UHGV virus genome: UHGV-0146066
Origin: a virus
Direction: 5' to 3' (one strand)
Length of the DNA stretch: 25,475 nt
A program made the position numbers and the translations under genes. The notes below the pieces were generated by a model, which saw only the letters and a list, made by a program, of their open reading frames with translations, did not search any database and was not told where the DNA came from. Of this stretch, positions 5,943 through 25,150 are shown piece after piece; position 1 is the first letter of the stretch; the number at the start of each line of letters is the position of its first letter.

Positions 5943-8900
5943 TTATTTAGTTGCTTTCAGTTCGGCAATTTCTTTCTGTAATGCTTCGATCTGGGCTTTA
6001 TATTTGGCGTCCATTTCCTGCATAGCTTTGATGATTAAAGCATTGACAGCAGAGTTAGAAATAGTCTTGATTGCTTCTGGATTTTCTGGATCTTCGGTGG
6101 ATTGAATACCTACTGCTTCCGGCAATACTTCTTCCAGATCCTGAGCAATAATACCTACTTCGCGTTTAATCACACTACGGTCTTTAAGAGATTTAACTTT
6201 ATCGTAGGTGTAGACTTTCAGTGAGTTTACTTTCTCTAATGCGCCGTCCTGTAATTCTTCCTTGTTAATCTTCAAACGGGAGTCAGAGCGAATGTAAACA
6301 TCGTTAAACGAACCGTTACGACCTGCGGTAAAGTCACCAGCAGCGTTAAAGTCAAAGTTAGTATCATGAACATGGAGACGAACAAGAGCGTTACCGATAG
6401 TACCGTCAGGAACGTGCACACCCATTGCTGCAATGTGATATTTACCCCAATGCGTCGCTTTCCATACGTTATGTGCCGAGTTGGTGGAATGAGGACACCC
6501 AACCATAAGACCAGCAGCACGGTCACGCCAGCTAGCCCAACTACCGCCAGCAACTTCACCACGAATCAGGCCATTACCGCCACCGGTTACAGTACCAGAT
6601 TCCAACTGGATCATCTTATCCGCAAGTTTCCACGTCTGGGCTTGTTTCTGACCACGGAAGCGAATAACACCAGCATCATCGGAATACATCAAACCTAGTT
6701 CTAAGCCATTCGGATCTCTAAACCACAAATGCTTATTACCAGTGCGCTTAAATTCAATATCAGCACCGTTAAGCGTGATATTACCGCCAGTGTGAATTGC
6801 TTGAGGCTTAACAGTACCGTTGATGGCAAACTCAATTGCCGTAGTACCCGGACCGCCCGGACGTTGGGTATACCAATGCCAACCGCTTTCATCAGCACAT
6901 TCAAATACTTGTTTACGAGCATCAGCGCCCCATGCACGAATATTGAAACTAGAAGTAGCTGTACCCTTACCCCAGCGAATCAGACCAGCAGATTCCAAAT
7001 CACCGAAGAATTTAGTTTTAATCGCACCAGTTGCTAAAGTACGTTCAGTGGTGAAGTGAGCACCTTTACTATCTTCAAGCTGTATAACGTTATCACGAGC
7101 GTTATTGCTATCGCCCCAATGACTCAAACGGAAATAGTCGCGGGATTGTCCAGCACCAGCATCAAATGTTAAATATTGGCCTTTAATGTATGTGTTTCCA
7201 GCAAAACGAGCAGCACGACTTGCACGTTCTAAGACTAATGCACCTTCGTTACCATCACCACCCAAAGTAACATTACCGCTACCCAGATTGTAAATGAATG
7301 GACGATAGCCGTTCCAACCACCAAATTTATCATTTTCGGCAGTAGACAGAAGATATACGTTTTGACCATCATTACGCCAGAATGCACCATAGTTACCGTA
7401 AATCATACGGAATGCATCACTGTTAGCAGCTACATATTGACCATTGGTGTATACAATTTTGGTAGCACCTGTGCTTAAAGATACTTGACCACTTGCTTCT
7501 AATTTAACAAAGTTTTTACCTTCGTCACTATACCATTGAAAATCGTTAGTATCTGTAGAACCAAAACCAAACCAGCCTTGACGTTTATTAGCCCCGTCTC
7601 GCTGATCCATATATTCAAAATAGTTACTACGACCAGTAGGACGCCACATACGAATCGCGTTATTGCCTTGCAGATGAAGTCTATCGACAAATAAACCATC
7701 ACTACCAACAATTTTTAATACTTCTTTTTGGTCGGTGGAACCAGTAGCCAAACGATACACATCACCTTGAACAGTTTCATGCCATATTGTTTCCGCCGCA
7801 CGACTGCGGAATTTACGCATATATTTTTTATTGTTGTCTGGTACGTTATTAAGGCTCACAATATCATAGGTTGCTTGTGAGTTATTATCAAACATCAACG
7901 TTCCGGCTTTGTTTTCGGTGTTGAACATCGTAATAACACGAGCATCGGTAACACCAACAGAAGGTTTAACGAGAGTTAATTCAGGAACATCATGTACTGT
8001 CAGAGTAACGCCATCAGTTTTACCGTATTCGACAATAACGTTATCGGTGTAACGACCGTAGTTAACGTAGATATCGTAGTTATCACCGGAAGTATTAACC
8101 GCAAATACTTGATGAACGTTCAGAGCATTTCGACGATAAGCAGCAATACTAACGCCTTTCGGGTTATTGTTACCGGAACGGATGACAATTTCTACAAAGT
8201 CAACCTGATCATAAGAGTTAACGTTATAACCATTACCACCGAAGATACGAAGCATTACCATTCGACCATTCTGTGGGATCGTAGCGGTTGCGATCTTGAA
8301 GTATCCACGAGTAGCATCACCAGAAGGAACGGTCATTCTAACGTTCTTGATGAACATCTGATCAACTTCGGCTTTACTATACACACCCAATTCAGTCGGA
8401 GTCGGCTTATCACCTTCGTGATACATGCGGTAGCTGAATCGCTTATTACCATCTTTATCAAAGCCATAGGTTTTAACTTGAGATGAGCTAGACCCATAGT
8501 GGAACTCAAAACCGCGACCGTGTGCTTTACCGCCAGAATGAGGAATGTTAAGGATTAAGTTACCCCAACCTTCGGCATTGTTTGGACGGAATGCACCAAA
8601 ATAATCAAGGTTACGAGCACCAGCATCATCAAAATAGTTAGCTGTTTTGGTTAACAGATAGCCGTGATGGTAAGTGTTGGTATTCTTCTTGATGTAAGCA
8701 GCATCGGCACTACCTTCAATAGAATCAATTCGCTGGTTAGCTGCGGCAATTGCGGCATCAGTAGAAGATTTATTCTGGTCTACCTTGTTGTTAATTGCTG
8801 TATGGTTGCTATTAACTGTCCCCGTAAGATTGGTGATCTTCGTGTCGGCATCGCGTTTATTATTTGCTACGGTCGTTTCTATGGCTGATTTATTTGCTGA

Positions 8901-9443
8901 GACAGTATTCGTTAAGTTAGTAACGTTGGTATTAGTCTGATCAACTCGTGCATTAATATCTGTCTTGTTCTTGTTAATTGTTGCGTTGATAGTATCGCGG
9001 GTTGAAGTAATAGTCTGATTCAGTTCAGTCTTAGCAGCCGCCAGAGCGTTAGCCGCTTCGGTTTTATTGTTACCTACTGTGGTAGTCAAAGCATCAATTC
9101 GTTTGTTGGCTGCGGTGTCGCCAGCAGTGATTGAAGCATTGAGAGCATCACGGGTAGAAGTGATAGTCTGATTCAGTTCAGCTTTAGCACTAGCCAGATT
9201 ATTAGCGGCTTCTTGTTTGTTGGAAGCAATAACACGGTCAGTGCTAGTTTTGTTATTGTCTACTTTCGTATTCAGTTCAGCGTGTTTTTCTGGAGAAACA
9301 CTAATTTGGACTACGTTATTATTTTTGTCTTTGGTGTAAATCACATGATCCGCCAACTGTAAGGCGATTTCACCCTGTGATAATTGTTCCGGCGTTGGTT
9401 TTTTACCCGCCGTCTGTGTGCGTTTAAATTGGATTGATTGCAT
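5943..9443 (-). CDS. Tail fiber protein with C-terminal intramolecular chaperone (peptidase S74-like) domain, 1166 aa
   Basis: N-terminal KRTQTAGKKPTPEQLSQGEIAL fiber motif, repetitive Thr/Asn-rich shaft, and a C-terminal RSDSRLKINKEEL...VGIIAQDLEEVLPEAV...ALIIKAMQE region typical of autoproteolytic fiber chaperone domains. AGGTGA Shine-Dalgarno. Confidence 0.8.
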   Translation of the reverse strand: MQSIQFKRTQTAGKKPTPEQLSQGEIALQLADHVIYTKDKNNNVVQISVSPEKHAELNTKVDNNKTSTDRVIASNKQEAANNLASAKAELNQTITSTRDALNASITAGDTAANKRIDALTTTVGNNKTEAANALAAAKTELNQTITSTRDTINATINKNKTDINARVDQTNTNVTNLTNTVSANKSAIETTVANNKRDADTKITNLTGTVNSNHTAINNKVDQNKSSTDAAIAAANQRIDSIEGSADAAYIKKNTNTYHHGYLLTKTANYFDDAGARNLDYFGAFRPNNAEGWGNLILNIPHSGGKAHGRGFEFHYGSSSSQVKTYGFDKDGNKRFSYRMYHEGDKPTPTELGVYSKAEVDQMFIKNVRMTVPSGDATRGYFKIATATIPQNGRMVMLRIFGGNGYNVNSYDQVDFVEIVIRSGNNNPKGVSIAAYRRNALNVHQVFAVNTSGDNYDIYVNYGRYTDNVIVEYGKTDGVTLTVHDVPELTLVKPSVGVTDARVITMFNTENKAGTLMFDNNSQATYDIVSLNNVPDNNKKYMRKFRSRAAETIWHETVQGDVYRLATGSTDQKEVLKIVGSDGLFVDRLHLQGNNAIRMWRPTGRSNYFEYMDQRDGANKRQGWFGFGSTDTNDFQWYSDEGKNFVKLEASGQVSLSTGATKIVYTNGQYVAANSDAFRMIYGNYGAFWRNDGQNVYLLSTAENDKFGGWNGYRPFIYNLGSGNVTLGGDGNEGALVLERASRAARFAGNTYIKGQYLTFDAGAGQSRDYFRLSHWGDSNNARDNVIQLEDSKGAHFTTERTLATGAIKTKFFGDLESAGLIRWGKGTATSSFNIRAWGADARKQVFECADESGWHWYTQRPGGPGTTAIEFAINGTVKPQAIHTGGNITLNGADIEFKRTGNKHLWFRDPNGLELGLMYSDDAGVIRFRGQKQAQTWKLADKMIQLESGTVTGGGNGLIRGEVAGGSWASWRDRAAGLMVGCPHSTNSAHNVWKATHWGKYHIAAMGVHVPDGTIGNALVRLHVHDTNFDFNAAGDFTAGRNGSFNDVYIRSDSRLKINKEELQDGALEKVNSLKVYTYDKVKSLKDRSVIKREVGIIAQDLEEVLPEAVGIQSTEDPENPEAIKTISNSAVNALIIKAMQEMDAKYKAQIEALQKEIAELKATK

Positions 9444-15396: not shown

Positions 15397-17301
15397 TTAG
15401 AACGATGTTACCCAGCTACGGCCTCTATTTGGGCGTCTGGCGATGTTTTTACGTTGTGGTCGTGTGATTGGCTTATTTTCTTCGATTTGCTCGTCAGATT
15501 GCGATTTAGGAGCTTCTACGGGTTCTTCTGGTTCGCGGTTCAAACTATCTTTGATGGCTTCGAGTTTTTCCCATGACATTTTATTGAGTACATGGCGAGA
15601 AGCAGCATAGGAATAAGCCAGGCAGTCGAGAGCCTCGTTTCGTTGCTGACCAACTTTTACCCAACGTGTGGTATTACCCTGCCGTTTCAACTGTTCAGAT
15701 AACAATTGTTCGCAGTAGTCATCAGGAACGTCACCAATCTGGAAGACCGTATGAGGATCGCTGTCTCTCAAGTTCCGGTTAATCATTTCACGGATCATCG
15801 TCTTAAGGTTGTTTACGCCCAGAATTTTAAGAGTAAAACCACCCGTTCTTGTGTCCTTGACCGGAAGGATTGGAGCATCAACATTGCTTGCCCCTTTAAT
15901 GGCGCATAGGTTTTGCCACCTAGTGCAGAAGCGATAGATCACGTTTGTAGCTCGTCCGTTCGATGAGTCCACGAAAGCAGATAGCATCGGGATTCGTTGA
16001 CCTGATCGGGTATAGAATTTAGCTTTCAGGAAGTTGTAAAGCTGGTCATATGCTGGCGATTCGTGGCGTTCGCAGTTCACATCATAGAATGATCGGTGAT
16101 CAACTACGCATATCCCCTTACGAGAGATACCCAGCAAGGTAGATTCCAGACGGTCTTTTTGCTGGTCAACTCCACCTACCAGAGCCAGAACATCATCAGG
16201 AATATTATCTAAGCTAATGTCAGTTTTCAGCGTTTCCAGTTCGTCGGCTGTGCGGTCTTCGTTAAGATCATCGAAGGTTTCACCGAGCACCACATTATAG
16301 AACGTTGCCAGTGACATATTCGCGTAGCTATCAGCAAAGTCCACCACACACGCACGGATAGAACTAAACGGAGACATAAGGCGGTTAGCATGAAAACCGA
16401 TTACTTCCGCATTTGGTTCGGTGGCGACCCATTCTCCCTGAGCAACAGCACGGAGGCGATCTGGTTCTGACCAATCAGTTTCACATGACGGGCAACGGTA
16501 AACGGCTGTGTCTGGATTCGGCAGTGATTTACCATTGATTACATGCCAATCAAAGAATACTCTACTCCATTCCATTACGTGTTTGTGTCCGCAATGCTGG
16601 CAAACGACGTGGTATTTTCTTTTATCCGAGAGTTCCCATTGTTGGTTTATCGCCCCATCCCGCGAAGTTGGAGTAGAAGCAATTACGATCCTTGCATCAT
16701 CACCGAAAGTGGTTGCGCGTTGTTCCGCTAGCTGGATCGGGTTCCCTTCGTCTGACTCATCAGCCGCATCAACTTCATCCAGAATAATCAAAGGCAGTGT
16801 CTTACCGCGCAAGTGTGATGGACTGTTCAGCGACATGAAATACATGAATGATCCGTTACGAAGCTGAATAATCGATGAGTTGTTAACGGCATTGCGATCT
16901 GATTTGTCGGTGATCATCGCCTTTAATTCTGGGGTTGCCTCTAATACTGGCTTCACCTTACCCGCAATCCATGAGTTCAATTCTCGAACGTTCGCTTGCA
17001 AAACACCGATATTAGTAGGGTTACTGGCGATCCTGTGAAAGATAATACCGTTTAGCACAAGAGTTTTACCCAACTGTGCCGAGCACTTTAGCACAATTTT
17101 TCGCCTATCTTCGGTGATCGCGTCCATCATTCCACGTTGGAAGGGATGCAACTTAATTAGAGATCCGGCTTTAACACCATCGGTTGCAACTACATTAGCC
17201 TCTACCCATTCGCTAGGTTTCATCGTTTTAGGTGGGCGAATTGCCGCAGAGATATTTTTAAGAATCTTTTTTAATTTGGCCTTATTAGAAATCAGTTTCA
17301 T
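15397..17301 (-). CDS. Terminase large subunit, lambda gpA family, 634 aa
   Basis: N-terminus IRPPKTMKPSEWVEANVV resembles gpA RPEPQTAVEWADANYY. Also IKGASNVDAPILPV versus gpA IKGASVYGKPV, and RNEALDCLAYSYAA versus RNEALDCFVYALAA. GAGGGT Shine-Dalgarno. Confidence 0.85.
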   Translation of the reverse strand: MKLISNKAKLKKILKNISAAIRPPKTMKPSEWVEANVVATDGVKAGSLIKLHPFQRGMMDAITEDRRKIVLKCSAQLGKTLVLNGIIFHRIASNPTNIGVLQANVRELNSWIAGKVKPVLEATPELKAMITDKSDRNAVNNSSIIQLRNGSFMYFMSLNSPSHLRGKTLPLIILDEVDAADESDEGNPIQLAEQRATTFGDDARIVIASTPTSRDGAINQQWELSDKRKYHVVCQHCGHKHVMEWSRVFFDWHVINGKSLPNPDTAVYRCPSCETDWSEPDRLRAVAQGEWVATEPNAEVIGFHANRLMSPFSSIRACVVDFADSYANMSLATFYNVVLGETFDDLNEDRTADELETLKTDISLDNIPDDVLALVGGVDQQKDRLESTLLGISRKGICVVDHRSFYDVNCERHESPAYDQLYNFLKAKFYTRSGQRIPMLSAFVDSSNGRATNVIYRFCTRWQNLCAIKGASNVDAPILPVKDTRTGGFTLKILGVNNLKTMIREMINRNLRDSDPHTVFQIGDVPDDYCEQLLSEQLKRQGNTTRWVKVGQQRNEALDCLAYSYAASRHVLNKMSWEKLEAIKDSLNREPEEPVEAPKSQSDEQIEENKPITRPQRKNIARRPNRGRSWVTSF

Positions 17302-18335: not shown

Positions 18336-19133
18336 TTACAGTCCGAAGTGTTCTAGCGATCCAACATTCTGACGAATCATGATAGTCGCTTTATTCTGAA
18401 TCATGATCGTGTTATTCGGTTTAGGCAGTGTCAAAGCTGCTTTTTGTTCTTCTTCAAGAACACCCAATTCAACCAGCACCGGAAGCACATCAACAGTGAA
18501 AGAAAGTTGATAGTGAGCGTTCATGCTGCAAAACGGTATCGCGGAATCATTAGCAACATACCCACACGGCTTGTTATTTTCATCATAGACGCGCTCAATG
18601 TATCCGGCAGTACGTAAGGCCGTCAGTGCTTCTTTAACCTTCGTAGCGCCCTTTTTAGCACCTAACAGACGCGTCATTGAATGGCTATCTACGGATTTGC
18701 GATGATGTAGAGTAATCAGTTGCTTGTTCTCGCGAGTTTTCTTTAACGCCAGTTCGATCCAGTCGGTTTCTTCAAAGTCTGCATACGGGTTAACGGCTAA
18801 ACGTTCCTGACGCAGTTTTTCATTTTCTTCTTTCAGTCGTTTCCATTCCTGAATAACAATCATTCGACGTTTAACATCGTAACCAGTAACAAGAGTCAGC
18901 GTCATTTCTTCGTCAAGGTGATATTCGGTTTGTTCGCGTCCATATTGGTCAAAATAGATACGCTGAGATTTCAGCGCATCTAATTCAAGTGCTTTAAACA
19001 TCTTAACAATATCAGCTTTAACGTTTTTGTGTTCTTTTCCGGTAAATTCAGCGATCTGACGAGAAGACATGGTCAGTGGTTTGGTGTTATCAACAACCAG
19101 AGACACGGAAGCAGTTTTAACAGCAGTATTCAT
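18336..19133 (-). CDS. Phage regulatory protein, Rha family (N-terminal Rha domain), 265 aa
   Basis: N-terminal LTMSSRQIAEFTGKEHKNVKADIVKM matches the remembered Rha-domain signature. AGGGGG Shine-Dalgarno. Confidence 0.7.
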   Translation of the reverse strand: MNTAVKTASVSLVVDNTKPLTMSSRQIAEFTGKEHKNVKADIVKMFKALELDALKSQRIYFDQYGREQTEYHLDEEMTLTLVTGYDVKRRMIVIQEWKRLKEENEKLRQERLAVNPYADFEETDWIELALKKTRENKQLITLHHRKSVDSHSMTRLLGAKKGATKVKEALTALRTAGYIERVYDENNKPCGYVANDSAIPFCSMNAHYQLSFTVDVLPVLVELGVLEEEQKAALTLPKPNNTIMIQNKATIMIRQNVGSLEHFGL

Positions 19134-19174
19134 AGTAAAAATCCCCCTTAACGGTTTAGTGATTTAATCCTCCC

Positions 19175-19198
19175 TGTTCCGGCATCACCACCGGAACA
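19175..19198. promoter_or_regulatory. Perfect 8-bp inverted repeat TGTTCCGG-N8-CCGGAACA between the 50-aa ORF and Rha (operator or RNA hairpin)
   Basis: Read directly from the sequence. No adjacent U-tract, so probably not a terminator. Confidence 0.35.
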
Positions 19199-19217
19199 AT
19201 TTTATTTATAAGAAGTT

Positions 19218-19370
19218 TTATCTCGTTTTGTATTCAGCCAGGCAGCGATCAATTTCTTCTTGAATCTGGCGCTGGCGTTCGTGGTAATCAACCATCGAGA
19301 AATTCAGGTTTGGTGTCCACGGCTTGCGGTTCGGGTTTTTACGTCCATCAATTTTCTTAGTAGTATTCAT
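19218..19370 (-). CDS. Small ORF not in the ORF track, 50 aa (MNTTKKIDGRKNPNRKPWTPNLNFSMVDYHERQRQIQEEIDRCLAEYKTR)
   Basis: Strong AAGAGGA Shine-Dalgarno 7 nt upstream of ATG at 19370, with a sigma70-like promoter upstream. Hand-translated. Confidence 0.5.
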   Translation of the reverse strand: MNTTKKIDGRKNPNRKPWTPNLNFSMVDYHERQRQIQEEIDRCLAEYKTR

Positions 19371-19428
19371 AGTTCACATCCTCTTTACAAATCTAGGTCA
19401 AATCAGTTCAAAGTTGTCAAGTGCGATA

Positions 19429-19457
19429 ATCATAAAAAAGTCTGAAAATTTTGCCAA
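19429..19457 (-). promoter_or_regulatory. Sigma70-like promoter for the 50-aa ORF / Rha unit (-35 TTGGCA, 17-bp spacer, -10 TATGAT)
   Basis: Hexamers read on the minus strand (plus 19452-19457 and 19429-19434). Additional TTGACA-like hexamers occur on both strands nearby. Confidence 0.5.
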
Positions 19458-19492
19458 CACCCCTTGACAAGATGCCAAAGGGTTGACCTAAC

Positions 19493-19960
19493 TTACAGCA
19501 TATCTAAGCCTTCATCGTAACCGTAGAAGCCACCGTGAGAAGAAAAAGCGATTGGTGCGTAGTCATCATCATCTTCGTCTTCTTCATCGCGTTCTGGTGC
19601 TTTCTGAGCGGTTTCTTTGCCGTAGTTAAACATTGCTTCATCCAGTTCTTGAAGAGTAAAGAAGCTACCCAGATCAACATCACCGGAACGGACTTCGAAA
19701 GGAAGGTATTCGCTAACGATGATCGCTGGAATATTCTGGTACTTTAAGCGGCCTTCATCGGTGAAGACGTTAACAACAATGGTCGGCTTCTTATTACGGC
19801 AAAACGCATACCATGCACTAGAGAAATGAGATTCATCAGAGTTGAAAAGAATGTTGTAACCACGTTCAACAAAGATCTTCATTAACTTGTCATTGTGGAA
19901 GCTATCAGCATCAAAACCTAACAGGATGAAAGGAGTAGTGGTAGTCATTTTATGGTTCAT
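19493..19960 (-). CDS. Hypothetical early protein with acidic C-terminus (EEDEDDDDY), 155 aa
   Basis: AGAGGA Shine-Dalgarno 8 nt upstream of ATG at 19960. No recognisable domain. Confidence 0.5.
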   Translation of the reverse strand: MNHKMTTTTPFILLGFDADSFHNDKLMKIFVERGYNILFNSDESHFSSAWYAFCRNKKPTIVVNVFTDEGRLKYQNIPAIIVSEYLPFEVRSGDVDLGSFFTLQELDEAMFNYGKETAQKAPERDEEDEDDDDYAPIAFSSHGGFYGYDEGLDML

Positions 19961-20503
19961 AGTGGAAATCCTCTAAAAGAAAGTGAATCAATCTAATATT
20001 ATTTATAAAGAGAAAATTCTTGTTATTATGAAAAGAGTGATCTGGTAGAGTCCAAAACTGGTCTGTACTTGAAAGATGATTGGATTCAGTCGGGCTAAAG
20101 CCCCCCTTCATAGATTTGATTAAATCATCATCAAAACGAAGAAGTATCTTTAGAATATAAGAATCTTTCTTTTGAAGAAATAATAATCAGGAAGCAATTT
20201 AGCAACCGAAGGTTGCAATCCCGAAGGGATACCAATACCTTTCTAGAAATTGATTGTTACTCACTTCGTTCGTTTACTAGAATCAGTTAGTAACTAGTAT
20301 TAAATCCCTTTCGAATCCTGCTTGCAGGTCTTAGAAGGTGTTGGTGGGCGCTACGCGCACGGCTACGCCGTATTCTTTTTGCGAGATCTTTCTTGAACGT
20401 AGTGAGAGAAAGCGAGCAAAAAGGAGAACGTTAGTTCGAATTTTATATTCTATGGTCTGTGGGGTATAATACCTTTCAAGGTCATACACTTACGTGATTG
20501 AAG

Positions 20504-20622
20504 TGTAGGGTTAGTGTAGGTGTGTAGGTTTCATAGTGTAGGTTTGAGGGTGTTATAGTGTAGGTTTACTGGCTAGTGTAGTGTAGGCCAATCCCTTTAA
20601 AGGGTAGGTGTGTAGTGTAGGT
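20504..20622 (+). repeat. Array of at least 7 direct GTGTAGG(TTT) repeats (iteron-like)
   Basis: GTGTAGG at 20504, 20515, 20523, 20537, 20559, 20582 and 20616, plus GTGTAGT variants, with irregular spacing. No ORF on either strand. Confidence 0.75.
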
Positions 20623-20818
20623 TTTCAATCAAAAATTTTGACAAAAAATTCTTGTATATTATTCAACCAAAAAACCACCAAAAATAGATGTAAATTCATG
20701 ATTTAAAAGAAATTTTCAAAAGATCTCCGTGCCATATAAGGTTTAAAAGGTTGATAATCATTATTTGCCATTTTCAAACAAAAATTTTGATACACCTTTC
20801 TCGCTTAGATCATGAATG

Positions 20819-20847
20819 TTGACATGTGTCAAGAACTATTTTATACT
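20819..20847 (+). promoter_or_regulatory. Strong sigma70 consensus-like promoter (TTGACA, 17-bp spacer, TATACT)
   Basis: -35 at 20819-20824 and -10 at 20842-20847, in an AT-rich context. Predicted start near 20854. Confidence 0.65.
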
Positions 20848-20853
20848 TTTTAT

Positions 20854-21013
20854 CCTTGGTAGGGGTTGAAATTTTCCAAACAATCCCCATATAGATGATA
20901 AGCATGATTTTTCGTGTATAAATACAATGCATGAAAAATGATTGTTCACTTCTGAAAATCCCTTGACTAACTGTTAATTCATACAGCACTGGTTAGATAT
21001 GCAGTGCTTTTTC
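20854..21013 (+). ncRNA. Candidate ~160-nt small RNA or leader transcript between the strong promoter and the first terminator
   Basis: Bounded by the promoter at 20819-20847 and the terminator at 20986-21013. Only an 8-codon ORF without a Shine-Dalgarno lies inside. Confidence 0.3.
20986..21013 (+). terminator. Intrinsic terminator (7-bp stem AGCACUG/CAGUGCU, then U5)
   Basis: Stem 20986-20992 pairs with 21003-21009; T-run 21009-21013. Confidence 0.6.
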
Positions 21014-21136
21014 GGTCGAATATTGTACGAATTGATTAATTATCAATCTTCTCTTTAGCAATTCGTGCTCCCACTGATCGGATATACAGTTGTTTTACAG
21101 AGTTTTTGAAAATCATTTTTATAAATAGAATTGTTC

Positions 21137-21156
21137 AGAGCGAAAAGCTCTTTTTT
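21137..21156 (+). terminator. Short hairpin with GAAAA pentaloop and U6 (terminator/attenuator; boxB-like architecture)
   Basis: AGAGC-GAAAA-GCUCU followed by TTTTTT, 35 nt upstream of the ATG at 21192. No promoter lies between it and the operon. Confidence 0.5.
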
Positions 21157-21191
21157 AAGGAATTATTAATCCACATGTGAGGAATCGATTT

Positions 21192-21371
21192 ATGGCTAGA
21201 CCTGTTAAATTTACTCGTGAAATGATTGTTGATATTGCTAAACGGTTTTACAGCGACACTGAGCGAGGCGGGGAAAACTTCTTTAAGAAGGAAGGGATTG
21301 ATAGAAGCGGATTCTATAAGCTAATGAAGAAATACGAAATTCAGGTAAAGATTAACGTTCAAGTTTGTTAA
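21192..21371 (+). CDS. Small HTH-like protein (ARPVKFTREMIVDIAKRFY), 59 aa; paralog of 18029-18253
   Basis: GAGGAA Shine-Dalgarno upstream of ATG at 21192; the track GTG start at 21177 is less likely. Shares the RP-x-(K/R)F-x-RE...I/V...Y motif with the 18029 ORF. Confidence 0.55.
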   Translation: MARPVKFTREMIVDIAKRFYSDTERGGENFFKKEGIDRSGFYKLMKKYEIQVKINVQVC

Positions 21372-21487
21372 TCCACTTTCACTGAGAATTATATGATGGC
21401 TTTAAAAATAAAAAGCCTCCCTTGTTGCAGCAAAGGAGACTTGAAATGAACAATTAAAACTAACACAGCATTCAGGAGTATTTATAA

Positions 21488-22501
21488 ATGAAAAATTCTA
21501 AGCGCATCACCTTCAACCTATTCATCAAATCCAACGGCAAACTGAACATTACCGTTATGGAAGGTAAAGCAAGCAAACAAGACAAATCCTTTGAAGTAGT
21601 ATCCGGTAAGACTCTGACCGAAATGCGTCAGAATGCTGGCATCAAAGACGGTGCTGAATGGCAGATCACTAACCGTTTCGACAAACGTCACGTTAAACCT
21701 ACACTGGTAGAAGGTGAATCCGTTTATTGCTTCGCTCGTGCTGTTAAAGCCGATGAAACTTACTATCTCGCTGTTATTAAAACTGCTTCCGGCTTCCGTG
21801 CTGTAATGCATCACAAGAGCAAGCGTAACGAATACGGCGTAGAGACCCAGGAAGTTGCAAAACGCTTCCGTACTGTTGCTACTGAATCCACTGTAAAGGA
21901 TGTTTCTGGTACTGTTAACACCGCTAAAGGCGGTTCCTTCTACAACCACGCATTACAGGTTACTTCCTCCTTCTTCTGCAAAAAAGAAGCACAGAAAGAA
22001 GTTGCTCCGGTAGTAGTTGAAGAAGTTAAAGAAGAAGTTGCAGTGGTTGAATCTTCCGAAGTTGAAGCACTGAAAGCACGCATTGCTGAACTGGAAGCTG
22101 AAAACGCATCTCTGAAAGCTGAACTGGCAGCGCAGGAAACCACTTTCGAAGTAGCAGCGGTTGAAGTTGAAGCAGTTGAAGAAAAATCCATTGATGAAGA
22201 ACTGGAAGAACTCCTTAACTATCGCTGGGGTAACGGTGAAAAAGTAGGACAGGAAGAACAGAAAGAAGCTGATCCGGTAGTAGTTCCGGTTGAAGAAAAA
22301 TCCGCACCTGTTACTAACTTTGAATCCCTGCGCAATAACTTTATGGCTAAATTCAAAACCACTTGGGAAGATACCGAAGAAGAACAAGAAGAGATTGAAG
22401 TAAACGAAGACGAGATCCGCGAAGCACAGATGGCACTGCATGACGCTATCTATGACACCAACTACAGCGCCTACGCCTACGCCTACGCCTACGCAGCTTA
22501 A
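21488..22501 (+). CDS. Abundant-looking acidic coiled-coil protein ending in SAYAYAYAYAA, 337 aa
   Basis: AGGAG Shine-Dalgarno 8 nt upstream. Codon choice looks biased toward common E. coli codons. Acidic, coiled-coil C-terminal half. No domain recognised. Confidence 0.65.
   Translation: MKNSKRITFNLFIKSNGKLNITVMEGKASKQDKSFEVVSGKTLTEMRQNAGIKDGAEWQITNRFDKRHVKPTLVEGESVYCFARAVKADETYYLAVIKTASGFRAVMHHKSKRNEYGVETQEVAKRFRTVATESTVKDVSGTVNTAKGGSFYNHALQVTSSFFCKKEAQKEVAPVVVEEVKEEVAVVESSEVEALKARIAELEAENASLKAELAAQETTFEVAAVEVEAVEEKSIDEELEELLNYRWGNGEKVGQEEQKEADPVVVPVEEKSAPVTNFESLRNNFMAKFKTTWEDTEEEQEEIEVNEDEIREAQMALHDAIYDTNYSAYAYAYAYAA
22469..22492 (+). repeat. Hexanucleotide microsatellite (GCCTAC)x4 encoding the C-terminal (AY)4
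   Basis: Four perfect tandem GCCTAC units immediately before GCAGCTTAA at the end of the 337-aa ORF. Confidence 0.9.
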
Positions 22502-22516
22502 TAGAGAGGTAATTCT

Positions 22517-22759
22517 ATGATTAATCAAAACAAAGAATTTCTTGGTAATCTGATGTTAGAAATTACCAAAATGAAAGAAAGAATGGTAGCGATGGAATCA
22601 GAGATTAAAACTCTTAAAGCTGATAATAAGGCGTTGAGAAAGTCCTTAAAACTGATTGATGAGACTAATGCGGTTATGATGGATCAGGTGTTTCCTGAGT
22701 GGCGAAATGAAACTAAACCTACACAACATAAGAAACCTACACTTCGAATTGTTGCATAA
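22517..22759 (+). CDS. Small coiled-coil protein, 80 aa
   Basis: AGAGAGG Shine-Dalgarno. Heptad-like pattern (KERMVAMESEIKTLKADNKALRKSLKLI). Last gene of the plus-strand operon. Confidence 0.5.
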   Translation: MINQNKEFLGNLMLEITKMKERMVAMESEIKTLKADNKALRKSLKLIDETNAVMMDQVFPEWRNETKPTQHKKPTLRIVA

Positions 22760-22763
22760 AAAA

Positions 22764-22781
22764 GGGACTCCGAAGAGTCCC
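22764..22781 (+). terminator. Hairpin GGGACUC-CGAA-GAGUCCC after the plus-strand operon (weak U-tract)
   Basis: Perfect 7-bp stem directly after the stop codon of the 22517-22759 ORF. The following sequence TAGTAAGTTT is only moderately U-rich. Confidence 0.45.
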
Positions 22782-22852
22782 TAGTAAGTTTAGGTTAGGT
22801 TTGCACAACAAAGATGAGGTTATAATGAACATAATGCTACATTATTCTTTAA

Positions 22853-22882
22853 AGCCAGAAAAATAACCGCCCCGAAGGGCGG
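22853..22882 (-). terminator. Intrinsic terminator of the minus-strand small-terminase / small-peptide unit
   Basis: CCGCCC-CGAA-GGGCGG hairpin at 22867-22882, followed on the minus strand by UUAUUUUUCU. Confidence 0.6.
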
Positions 22883-23040
22883 GAGGATTAATACTCAATC
22901 TATACTTGTTATGTTTTTGTGTTGTATAGATCACTGACTATGAAAACACTGTACTGGAGTGTGTTTTATGGCTTTTAATCGGGAATCCTCAAAGAAGATC
23001 CCCTGTTAATAACCATAAGGAGAAAAGGCAGATTACACTA

Positions 23041-23214
23041 TTATTTAGTATCCTTTTTACAGCAACTAAAAAGAATAAACAGGATTAAGCATACCCAGCC
23101 GTAAGGCGTACCGATTAGAAATTTGAAAAACACCACCAGCGATATAAAAATCAATTTAATGCCAGCGACGATAGTCAAAAACAGCAGAGTAGCAAAGTAG
23201 ACAAAAAGATCCAT
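23041..23214 (-). CDS. Small hydrophobic membrane protein not in the ORF track, 57 aa (holin-like or toxin-like)
   Basis: Strong AGAGGA Shine-Dalgarno 8 nt upstream of ATG. Hand translation MDLFVYFATLLFLTIVAGIKLIFISLVVFFKFLIGTPYGWVCLILFILFSCCKKDTK has two hydrophobic segments and a charged C-terminus. Confidence 0.5.
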   Translation of the reverse strand: MDLFVYFATLLFLTIVAGIKLIFISLVVFFKFLIGTPYGWVCLILFILFSCCKKDTK

Positions 23215-23267
23215 AGATAATCCTCTTTGAAAACGACCATCATCTATAGTTCAATTCATCGATTTAA

Positions 23268-23369
23268 TTAATGATACTTGAAAGCGTTACACACAGTAGA
23301 AATGCCAATGTGAGCAAGTGAATATACGATAGTTAATCCTACAGCCAGATAAATCAAAAATTCAACCAT
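23268..23369 (-). CDS. Small hydrophobic peptide not in the ORF track, 33 aa
   Basis: GAGGA Shine-Dalgarno 7 nt upstream of ATG. Hand translation MVEFLIYLAVGLTIVYSLAHIGISTVCNAFKYH has one hydrophobic segment. Confidence 0.4.
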   Translation of the reverse strand: MVEFLIYLAVGLTIVYSLAHIGISTVCNAFKYH

Positions 23370-23399
23370 AGGTAAATCCTCAAATAAGAAAAAGGTTAG

Positions 23400-23418
23400 C
23401 GGGGGATGTTCTCCCCCG
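23400..23418 (-). other. Stem-loop CGGGGGA-N5-TCCCCCG downstream of the small terminase gene
   Basis: Perfect 7-bp inverted repeat. A U-rich tract begins 6 nt after it on the minus strand. Confidence 0.4.
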
Positions 23419-23469
23419 TAGACGTTGACCAGCTCAACATCCTTCACGTATATGTTTAGTATCTAATTT

Positions 23470-24024
23470 TTAAGACACATCAAATTCATCGTCTTCTTCT
23501 GGTTCTTGTTCCGGTTCATCCATTAATGCTAATTCTTCTTCCTCGTCTTCTCCCAAATCTGCATTTTCGAACAAGTCCCCTACTTCATTTAAACGACGTT
23601 CGATGATCTCCCTTAGCTTATTCTTCAATGTTTTCTGATCAGTGGCGGATTCTAAAATTTCTAGGGCATCGATCGTACAAATCTGCAAAATAGTCTGTTT
23701 CACTTTCCCGCAGTATTCCGCTAGTTCCTGTTCTACATAACCGACAGGAATCAGGAGATTCATTTTTTCCTGGTTCTCTCGTTCGGCTGCATCTGCCAAA
23801 GCACGTTCACGGCGTAATTTCTCTACGTCGATTTGTTCTTTGATAGAAGTTTGTTTAAGCGGGTTGATAATATTTTTCAAGACCCATTCTGTTCCTTCTT
23901 TGGCTGGCACGCGGCGGGTATTGGTGTTAAATGGCAATCCCCTTTCTAACCATCGCTTACCGCCACCATTCAATGTATAGCCATATAAACGGGAAATTTC
24001 TGTAAGGGTTAATTCTTCTTTCAT
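23470..24024 (-). CDS. Terminase small subunit, lambda Nu1-like, 184 aa
   Basis: N-terminal LTLTEISRLYGYTLNGGGKRWLERGLPF and EKLRRE resemble remembered Nu1 segments LADIFGASIRTIQNWQEQGMPV, GGGK and EKLRRE. Acidic C-terminus. Strong GGAGGA Shine-Dalgarno. Confidence 0.5.
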   Translation of the reverse strand: MKEELTLTEISRLYGYTLNGGGKRWLERGLPFNTNTRRVPAKEGTEWVLKNIINPLKQTSIKEQIDVEKLRRERALADAAERENQEKMNLLIPVGYVEQELAEYCGKVKQTILQICTIDALEILESATDQKTLKNKLREIIERRLNEVGDLFENADLGEDEEEELALMDEPEQEPEEDDEFDVS

Positions 24025-24382: not shown

Positions 24383-25150
24383 ATGAAAAACATTATCGCT
24401 GCTATCATGCTTTCTGCTACTGCTTTCGGTGCTGATGCTGCGTCCTTTGATTGCACTAAGGCTACTACCAAATCAGAGAAGTTTATTTGTGCTAATGAGT
24501 CAATCTCCGCACTGGATTCTAAACTTCATGAAGTATATGTTAAGGCTGTTAAGATTAATCCGTCTCTTAAACAAGAGCAACGTAACTGGAATAAAACTGT
24601 TCGTGACACAATGATCAATATCGGGCAGATTCAGCCACTGGAGGCTGTATACAACGCTCAAATCCAAAACTTGATGAATGTATTATCTAAAGAAGAAACC
24701 GCGTCAGGGAGCGTTTCAGAGACTTCTGCGAAGGTTGAAGAAGAACAACCGAAACAGGAAGAAAAAGTGGTGGAAGAACCGAAGGTTGAAGATAAACCAA
24801 AAGGATTTACCGGAGACATGACATTGCAATGCGATGTTCACTATAGCTGGGAAATCCAAGACGGGGTAGAAACAAAAGCAGTTAAAGACATTGGCTATCC
24901 TCGTTATAACTCTGGTGAACTTAAACTTAAAGTAAAAGACGGGGAAATTATTGAATTTGTGTATCGTGATAATTATGACGCGCATAAAGCAAAGACAAAA
25001 ACAGTGACGCATCAGAATGGCGCAATGCAATATGAAGGCCAAGTGGATAACAAAAAATATTATGTGTGGCGTGATAATCAAGATATGATTCGCTTAGAAG
25101 TACATAAAAAATATTCAAGAACATACATTGACCAGTACGGGTGCAAATAA
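24383..25150 (+). CDS. Secreted protein with N-terminal DUF1311 / LprI-like domain, 255 aa
   Basis: Sec-type signal peptide MKNIIAAIMLSATAFGADA. FDCTKATTKSEKFICANESISALDSKLHEVYVKAV fits the remembered DUF1311 pattern. AAGAGG Shine-Dalgarno. Confidence 0.55.
   Translation: MKNIIAAIMLSATAFGADAASFDCTKATTKSEKFICANESISALDSKLHEVYVKAVKINPSLKQEQRNWNKTVRDTMINIGQIQPLEAVYNAQIQNLMNVLSKEETASGSVSETSAKVEEEQPKQEEKVVEEPKVEDKPKGFTGDMTLQCDVHYSWEIQDGVETKAVKDIGYPRYNSGELKLKVKDGEIIEFVYRDNYDAHKAKTKTVTHQNGAMQYEGQVDNKKYYVWRDNQDMIRLEVHKKYSRTYIDQYGCK

Follow-up and report, generated by a model that had tools for sequence, protein, structure and literature searches.

Promoter, leader and candidate iteron origin in the control region of an Escherichia coli prophage, with a possible marbox input from the host

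Background

Helically phased direct repeats beside an AT-rich stretch are found in iteron replicons such as lambda O/ori, P1 repA/incC and the iteron plasmids, and the lambda initiator O is moreover modular. For transcription, lambda offers two further points of comparison, namely the pR'-tR' unit of 6S RNA, in which a strong promoter is followed by terminator-like hairpins, and the nut sites, which in both nutR and nutL consist of boxA, a gap of 8-9 nt and the boxB hairpin, not followed by a U-run. A boxA serving as the NusB/NusE site also occurs in the untranslated leaders of rrn, suhB and CRISPR, and micF of E. coli has a class II promoter of the MarA/SoxS/Rob system. The locus compared with these systems here is the 1.08-kb non-coding region at positions 20112-21191 of virus genome UHGV-0146066, of which the whole 25,475-nt stretch is called the window. 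This central control region separates leftward genes (for proteins of 53, 155 and 50 amino acids (aa) and a Rha-family protein) from a rightward operon (21192-22759; 59, 337 and 80 aa), and its right half is occupied by a promoter, here called P, and the leader of the operon. The window belongs to a ~35-kb E. coli prophage inserted in hicB (strain DEC5A), whose unstudied lineage occurs in roughly 1% of the complete E. coli genomes, 63 of 5,426 having a chromosomal match to the region (80-99.9% identity). A literature search on the prophage and on the sequence of an invariant 17-mer in its leader returned nothing relevant.

For comparison, 28 related loci were collected from IMG/VR, E. coli genomes and Logan assemblies. 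These comprise the window-type leader (21 distinct sequences, with a mean column identity of 91%, the leader being more conserved than the 35 nt that follow its last hairpin) and three divergent leader types. In the first of these (loci L009/L022) positions 20622-21143 cannot be aligned with the window; the second (L029) has a 337-aa homologue that is 44% identical, and the third (L030) one that is 66% identical, with the first 110 nt of the leader replaced.

Results and discussion

A conserved promoter and a leaky leader

The reading favoured here, to which we give a probability of about 0.5, has a strong promoter under operator control next to a putative iteron origin, and a leader of tandem leaky terminators that throttles an initiator-like operon, with a marbox (a MarA/SoxS/Rob site) as host input. 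In this model, the strong sigma-70 promoter P lies at the edge of an iteron array and AT-rich region (a putative origin or control array) and would be shut by a repressor bound at a dyad over its -35 hexamer. Transcripts from P would encounter weak intrinsic terminators, two or three in number (hairpins 1 and 2, the latter universal, and 1b, the paralogue of hairpin 1). Most of them would probably end there as short non-coding RNA, with only a fraction getting as far as the initiator-like gene, which would amount to constitutive attenuation and not to factor-dependent antitermination. The main product of the operon would be a 337-aa protein that reads the adjacent iteron array. The marbox between hairpins 1 and 2 may be the entry point for host MarA/SoxS/Rob, acting via a leftward promoter directed against P, via a weak rightward promoter that bypasses hairpin 1, or both. 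A promoter and two weak terminators before an operon, taken on their own, are ordinary leader attenuation, of importance mainly for annotating this lineage. The original prediction had overlooked the iteron array and its co-varying protein, the -35 dyad, the duplicated hairpin and the marbox. The elements of the promoter and leader are the following:

20819-20824 / 20842-20847, plus strand: promoter P, TTGACA-17-TATACT (score 11/12; predicted start near 20853)
20819-20832, no strand assigned: dyad TTGAC-N4-GTCAA overlapping the -35 hexamer, candidate operator
20862-20888, plus strand: hairpin A, GGGGTTG-N12-CAATCCC(C) (98% of cells paired, G-U changes only)
20907-20939, plus strand: hairpin B, a variable stem with the conserved loop TATAAATAC (two pairs changed on both sides)
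20985-20991 / 21002-21008 (stem), plus strand: hairpin 1 (T1), AGCACTG/CAGTGCT, 7-bp stem with a 10-nt loop
21071-21096, plus strand: hairpin 1b, CCACTG-N10-CAGTKG followed by T4, paralogue of hairpin 1, 85 nt downstream
21137-21151, with T6 to 21156, plus strand: hairpin 2 (T2), AGAGC-GAAAA-GCTCT, 5-bp stem

The near-consensus promoter of the original prediction is present. It is the best site in 19000-23500 and the sole site of at least 11/12 in the whole window, both strands included, a score that by chance occurs 0.88 times per simulated window and at least once in 57% of them. Both hexamers and the 17-bp spacer are kept in 28 of 28 loci, including those types whose flanks cannot be aligned, with single-base variants of the -10 hexamer in L019 (TATCCT), L025 (TATGCT) and L030 (TATAAT) and of the -35 hexamer in L030 (TTGACT). 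It is therefore the conservation across leader types, and not the quality of the match, that makes P credible, and on that ground P is very probably real. The dyad over its -35 hexamer, TTGACnnnnGTCAA, is found in 26 loci with its four central bases variable, is missing only in L009/L022, and likely represents an operator. The original prediction saw no promoter between hairpin 2 and the operon, and no plus-strand site of at least 9/12 occurs in 20848-21191; a weak intervening candidate is TTTACA-20-TATAAA at 21094-21125. A minus-strand candidate, TTTATA-16-TATCAT (20922-20895), was dropped, as it is not conserved in L009.

The leader from P to the operon is ~340 nt long and untranslated. The original prediction rightly saw no credible open reading frame in the ~160-nt transcript up to hairpin 1: the leader contains only mechanical GTG/TTG frames of 22-59 aa, the longest of which is broken in relatives by indels of 1, 1 and 2 nt.

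The element that best fits a terminator is hairpin 2, for which the earlier description (5-bp stem, GAAAA loop and U6 at 21137-21156, 35 nt before the operon) is confirmed. It combines a G+C-rich stem, a loop of 3-8 nt and a direct U-run, as expected of an intrinsic terminator, and is the only leader hairpin that passes the terminator scan (-6.7 kcal/mol, z -0.9), its end lying 35 nt upstream of the ATG at 21192. Together with a U5-6 run it is kept in all leader types, and its sequence in the divergent ones (GAGCG-GUUAA-CGCUC in L009/L022, AGAGCG-GAAA-CGCUCU in L029) shows that matching bases were added on both arms. This supports the view that hairpin 2 behaves as a conserved putative terminator or attenuator directly before the operon.

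For hairpin 1 the case is mixed. A hairpin with a U-run does exist where a terminator had been placed at 20986-21013 (the coordinates being one base off), with T5 at 21008-21012 directly after the stem, but it is weak, not universal, and not called by the consensus terminator scan, its loop being longer than 8 nt; of the features of an intrinsic terminator it has the stem and the U-run only. Its stability is -9.8 kcal/mol in the window (z -1.5) and ranges from -3.4 to -12.6 kcal/mol across its variants. The stem is kept while the loop drifts, and one A-U to G-C compensatory pair occurs in three sequences; in L010 and L025 the hairpin is disrupted (-3.4 kcal/mol), and in L013/L025 the U-run is broken. 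Where only two terminators had been noted, a third hairpin, 1b, stands between them: mismatched in the window (-1.6 kcal/mol), it is intact in most relatives (-7.4 kcal/mol in 12). It had also been stated that expression of the operon requires readthrough of both terminators; transcripts from P must indeed pass terminator-like signals, but not everywhere hairpin 1, as it is lacking in some leader types. The label of an early operon for 21192-22759 is not supported.

In its formal layout, with terminator-like hairpins within 160-300 nt of a strong promoter, this unit looks like lambda pR'-tR', and we propose that the likeness extends to its output, i.e. short non-coding RNAs by default and downstream genes that depend on readthrough. 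It differs from lambda in that no Q, N or other antiterminator was found, nor any qut or nut feature, in that simple leakage would suffice, the terminators being weak, and in that the unit serves a three-gene operon beside an iteron array instead of a late region.

The original prediction had further suggested that the ~160-nt RNA from P to hairpin 1 could be an independent regulatory small RNA, acting in trans or in cis, for example as an immunity or copy-control RNA of the kind known from P4, P1, N15 and plasmids. Its strong conserved promoter, the absence of an open reading frame and the terminator-like 3' end would suit such a role, as would a fold modestly better than that of shuffled sequences (z -1.96) and some covariation in two hairpins, the stem of hairpin B reading CGUG/CAUG in most loci, CCAC/GUG in L020/L021, CUC/GAG in L026-28 and CCUACAC/GUGUAGG in L030. 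A further point in its favour is that no CI-type or other protein repressor gene is recognised in the annotation of the prophage. The unit from P to hairpin 1 is, however, not conserved, since L009/L022 and L029 have no hairpin 1 and L030 has a different 5' half. Rfam 15, which includes the C4 antisense RNA of the P1/P4/N15 type, gave nothing at E up to 1 across 19000-23500 apart from two chance-level hits (E >0.6), and complementary targets for the 160-nt RNA within the window are limited to five 11-mers, about the number expected by chance. An independent small RNA is therefore considered very unlikely.

Three terminator-like hairpins that point leftward were seen on the minus strand as well, one (21413-21442) between the 59-aa and 337-aa genes, with compensatory stem changes in relatives, and two (22763-22782 and 22867-22882) just past the end of the operon. 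Together they would shield the operon and P from leftward transcription.

A repeat array and the protein that varies with it

Upstream of P lie repeats and an AT-rich spacer, and the operon downstream encodes a protein that changes with those repeats:

20498-20625, plus strand: iteron array from the repeat search, ~10 copies of (A)GTGTAGG(T) with 11/22-bp phasing
20626-20818, no strand assigned: AT-rich spacer, about 30% GC, candidate DNA-unwinding or UP region
20629-20641 and 20778-20790, no strand assigned: two TCAAAAATTTTGA-type dyads bounding the AT-rich spacer, exactly 149 bp apart
21192-21371, plus strand: 59-aa gene without a family match, whose alleles do not track the iteron type
21488-22501, plus strand: 337-aa gene, candidate for an iteron-binding, initiator-like protein
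22517-22759, plus strand: gene of an 80-aa coiled-coil protein, last of the operon, with other genes in its place in some relatives

The array holds seven exact copies of GTGTAGG, compared to 1.5 expected in the whole window, and it has the layout of an iteron origin, with at least four direct repeats, helical phasing and an AT-rich neighbour. At the same place, relatives carry arrays that are unrelated in sequence (TTTCAGGGGCAAAA, TGGAATCTTGGGG, TAGTGCAGGG and at least one more). The 337-aa protein consists of a variable N-terminal domain of ~170 aa, followed by a coiled coil and an acidic tail, and four iteron types pair with four types of this N-terminal domain, whereas the 59-aa and 155-aa proteins and a Nu1-like protein of 184 aa do not co-vary with the iteron type. 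Because only its N-terminal domain co-varies with the array, the 337-aa protein is the best candidate for the reader of the repeats. The swapped arrays (e.g. the GTGTAGG versus the GGGGCAAAA type) and swapped domains form a clean natural experiment; they suggest that these initiator-like, sequence-specific DNA-binding proteins are a new orphan family. Recognition of the iterons by TerS was rejected, as the Nu1-like protein does not follow them. For the 59-aa protein, the N-terminus MARPVKFTRE presumably is the start of a helix-turn-helix.

Across the complete 35-kb prophage, no replication gene is annotated other than the 337-aa candidate, and it is this, along with the layout of repeats and AT-rich spacer, that makes an initiator and its origin the most economical reading of the protein and the array, a pair that we regard as putative. 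The resemblance to iteron replicons includes the phased repeats and the AT-rich stretch and, as with the modular lambda O, an N-terminal domain in the adjacent gene that changes with the repeat sequence. The differences are that in neither sequence nor fold can a likeness of the protein to known initiators be detected, that no helicase loader is present, and that the array lies 200 bp upstream of the promoter, not over it or inside the gene.

Searches with the three operon proteins and their variants gave no match in Pfam, PHROG or NCBIfam, and a GTDB scan with the 337-aa protein gave none either. Its family is tiny, an exhaustive HMMER search through 1.84 billion proteins having found just six representatives. 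In the AlphaFold model, confidence is limited to residues about 5-112, and Foldseek returned nothing below E 0.06 from PDB and BFVD, with faint PUR-alpha-like hits only.

A few observations on the array and its protein stand apart from this argument. The 149-bp pair of TCAAAAATTTTGA-type dyads recurs in L018-L020, and its spacing is the same in relatives with other iteron types. In L009 and L029 only about 30-80 nt of the AT-rich spacer are left. Extra inverted copies of GTGTAGG occur within genes (22718-22742 on the minus strand in the 80-aa gene; 21698-21704 in the 337-aa gene), and none were seen in loci whose arrays are of another type than GTGTAGG; they may offer the reader of the array secondary sites, for looping or handcuffing, or be a coincidence. 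Finally, nearly all variants of the 337-aa protein (window, L018-L030, P0121-P0126) end in ...AA (SAYAYAYAYAA, RKAA, RRAA, LKAA, FAA), independently of the preceding sequence, and by its resemblance to an ssrA/ClpX-type degron this C-terminus would make for an unstable protein.

An invariant 17-mer as a possible host input

Between hairpins 1 and 2 lies the element that links this prophage to other phages, together with two candidate promoters near it:

21053-21069, minus strand: invariant 17-mer CTTTAGCAATTCGTGCT (minus strand AGCACGAATTGCTAAAG), containing the marbox GCACGAATTGCTAAA at 21068 to 21054
21027 to 21022, minus strand: predicted -10 TACAAT of a candidate leftward promoter, 26 nt downstream of the forward marbox
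21094-21127, plus strand: predicted weak rightward promoter P2, TTTACA-N20-TATAAA

Exact in 28 of 28 loci and present twice in L009/L022 and L029, the 17-mer is exceeded in conservation, among the elements of the leader, only by the promoter and hairpin 2. The GCACGAATTGCTAAA within it matches all ten specified positions of one published marbox consensus, 5'-gcannwwntgnnaaa-3' (PMC12052159), and 14 of 15 of another, GCAHWWWWTGYYAAA (PMC6900184). The marbox case in the prophage rests on this invariance and on the data from T1-like phages, as follows.

A scan of IMG/VR yielded 84 exact copies of the 17-mer, which is far above chance, and most of them lie outside this prophage family, in contigs of T1-like phages such as Sd1, Rtp and ACG-M12. 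In these virulent phages a genome has about ten copies. Shigella phage Sd1 (NC_047847.1) has ten copies (at 1194, 3948, 6954, 7993, 11758, 14191, 36969, 40938, 41856 and 44616), all intergenic, compared to 0.11 expected, and nine of these ten are forward relative to the downstream gene, with the reverse complement AGCACGAATTGCTAAAG on the strand that precedes it. In 57 contexts (IMG/VR and Sd1 tallied together) a -10 hexamer (TATAGT, TATATT, TATTAT or TATAAT) follows exactly 20 nt after the AAA, without a -35 hexamer. This geometry is identical to that of the micF promoter, which served as a control (GCACTGAATGTCAAA-20 nt-TAGAAT, centre -41). A GTDB scan with the 17-mer was discarded, since its 66 hits in unrelated taxa equal chance (~69; 2 x 596 Gb / 4^17).

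The only non-structural protein common to Sd1 and the prophage is of the Rha family, at 34% identity; a phage-encoded reader of the 17-mer held in common with T1-like phages was accordingly set aside, and a host factor is the more plausible reader. A literature search found no description of marboxes in phage promoters or of their use by phages. That E. coli phages wire the host MarA/SoxS/Rob system into their own control circuits is put forward tentatively, at somewhat less than even odds, from the motif and its placement. Were this the case, T1-like phages would owe much of their transcription to Rob, which is abundant, or to MarA/SoxS induced by stress. In the prophage, the region that controls replication and lysis-lysogeny would be coupled to host signals of antibiotic or oxidative stress. 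The 17-mer common to the prophage and the T1-like phages, in the latter with the geometry of a promoter known to be activated by MarA/SoxS/Rob, suggests an undescribed route by which phages read or exploit host stress regulators, which bears on phage-antibiotic interactions.

How the marbox would act in the prophage itself is less clear-cut, as its position differs from that in micF: the nearest -10-like hexamer on the minus strand is 26 nt away, and the site falls within a leader that a convergent promoter transcribes. In published promoters, class II marboxes are forward and overlap the -35 region, with a centre at about -40, and class I marboxes are reverse, at about -50 to -85. On the minus strand the marbox centre falls at about -46 relative to TACAAT. 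On the plus strand a TATAAATA motif is kept upstream of hairpin 2 in every leader type, and the distance of the marbox centre from the implied P2 start is -70 to -72, a class I-like position, in L029, L030 and the window-type loci, compared to -81 in L009. Neither arrangement is canonical.

The minus-strand arrangement invites an alternative explanation of the locus. Face-to-face promoter switches are established in coliphages 186 and P2, and here the marbox could drive a leftward, MarA/SoxS/Rob-dependent promoter (start near 21015) whose transcript, running antisense through hairpin 1, would collide with P some 160 bp further on. In that case the DNA from P to hairpin 1 would serve as an antisense or interference module that settles the choice between the rightward initiator operon and the leftward operon with the Rha gene. 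The marbox is indeed forward on the minus strand, and in T1-like phages a -10 hexamer always follows the forward marbox. In L029 (TATACT), L030 and the window-type loci the spacing to a -10-like hexamer (overall TACAAT, TACATT, TACAGT or TATACT) is constant, at 26 nt, and copy 1 of L009 has TATGAA at the exact class II distance of 20 nt. The usual spacing is, however, not the 20 nt of micF and the T1-like phages, and in L027/L028 the hexamer is TGCAGT, by which the critical A at -11 is lost. The leftward genes, moreover, begin 900 nt away, past the iteron array, and no minus-strand terminator or target is evident. We consider such a switch unlikely, though less so than the other alternatives discussed here, and retain the leaky-terminator leader with a marbox input as the preferred reading.

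On the plus strand the same 17-mer region has another likeness, which raises the question of processive antitermination, i.e. whether the leader loads a termination-resistant complex (of the N/nut, Nus boxA or HK022 put kind), with hairpins 1 and 2 read through only when it is engaged. The region TCTCTTTAGCAATT is identical to the boxA of rrnH, GCTCTTTAACAA, at 10 of 12 positions, and as in rrn, suhB and CRISPR the resembling TCTCTTTAGCAA lies in a long untranslated leader. In HK022, put sites are stem-loops directly after the promoter, and two conserved stem-loops directly follow P as well. Hairpin 2 has the architecture of boxB, with a 5-bp stem and the GAAAA pentaloop of nutR, albeit in the window only. 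A long untranslated leader would also be exposed to Rho (PMC7665894), which likewise counts for a need of antitermination.

These likenesses do not hold up well across the relatives. The loop of hairpin 2 is GAAAU in L017/L020/L021/L030, GUUAA in L009/L022 and GAAA in L029, its U-run follows directly, and the nearest boxA-like sequence is 75 nt upstream, compared to the 8-9 nt that separate boxB from the boxA of lambda (CGCTCTTA); the analogy with boxB and N that had been drawn from the GAAAA hairpin is thereby lost. Against the gamma-proteobacterial consensus GYTCTTTAANA (PMC5725501), TCTCTTTAGCA matches at eight of ten specified positions, failing at positions 1 and 9, and the copies in L009 fail at position 3 too; positions 1-3, just ahead of CTTTA, show free variation in the larger collection of 17-mer copies. 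In T1-like phages, nine of ten copies are antisense to genes, so that the element acts as DNA there, on the strand opposite to that of a boxA, and the boxA reading of the 17-mer was demoted for that reason. Hairpin A is absent from L029, and in L009 it has moved beside hairpin 2, so that hairpins A and B swap order. As to a protein, no non-structural open reading frame of the window has a family match to N, Q or another antiterminator in Pfam, PHROGs or NCBIfam, although a small orphan frame might encode one. Taken together, this makes antitermination the least probable of the alternatives, and from its elements the locus looks like one of leaky-terminator control.

Several points weigh against the preferred reading. 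In the leader, hairpins 1, 1b and 2 are all weak (-1.6 to -12.6 kcal/mol) with unremarkable z-scores, the 10-nt loops of hairpins 1 and 1b are atypical, and the leader types of L009/L022 and L029 have no hairpin 1. In the close set of sequences 97% of cells are paired and only three pairs are changed on both sides, a count whose shuffle control carries a caveat of relatedness, so that covariation lends the leader hairpins modest support. For the origin, we infer iteron binding by the 337-aa protein from co-variation only, and the protein matches no known initiator family (Rep, O, RepA) or fold. As for the host input, the marbox consensus alone gives two hits in the window versus 0.41 expected, which is not significant at that scale, the nearest -10-like hexamer is at 26 and not 20 nt, and the 20-bp spacer of P2 is poor. 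Lastly, hairpins 1 and 1b have the loop sequence GATAT in common, which fits a protein site at the DNA level equally well as an RNA hairpin.

This last point leads to the possibility that the promoter mainly serves the putative origin. Activation of an origin by transcription is well known from lambda (pR) and oriC (gidA), and P, by transcribing away from the iteron and AT-rich region, could help to open it, with expression of the operon being secondary and the CACTG-N10-CAGTG elements being DNA sites for a protein instead of RNA terminators. P does abut the AT-rich region beside the iterons, and hairpins 1 and 1b are two copies, 85 bp apart, with a common stem and loop sequence. Origin function is itself only putative, though; in L009 and L029, P and hairpin 2 are kept although the CACTG elements and much the greater part of the AT-rich spacer are missing, and the compensatory A-U to G-C change favours a folded strand. 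Transcription in the service of the origin thus seems improbable as the principal role of P, to about the same degree as an independent small RNA.

Other features of the prophage

The window does not correspond to a known cultured phage. The control region has no DNA match in the cultured-phage collection (near, distant and protein modes) or in plasmids, and the closest cultured-phage relative of the terminase is 44% identical. A serine recombinase is located at one prophage end, the minus strand of the window carries the lysis, tail, head, portal and gpA-type terminase genes, and no tRNA or tmRNA genes were found.

The left half of the control region, 20112-20497, is crowded with small GC-rich tetraloop hairpins (e.g. 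GCAACC-GAAG-GGTTGC and ATCCC-GAAG-GGAT) and contains TCTAGAATCAGTTAGTAACTAG repeats, with one copy in the window and four in L018. At 20302/20303 the window lacks about 70 bp (68-74 alignment columns), which are kept in 13 of 13 relatives aligned there, including those that are 99.9% identical.

Outside the control region, the tail-fibre gene (5943-9443) and an LprI-like gene at the prophage end (24383-24790) have 80-89% DNA identity to RB49-like T-even phages (Krischvirus), a similarity implying that virulent myoviruses and a temperate, siphovirus-like prophage have recently exchanged DNA. The 184-aa Nu1/small-terminase-like protein (23470-24024, minus strand; PHROG 57, E 6e-11) has its gene 6 kb away from that of the gpA-type large terminase (15397-17301), with the control region and the plus-strand operon in between, an unusual arrangement in which the packaging genes are split.

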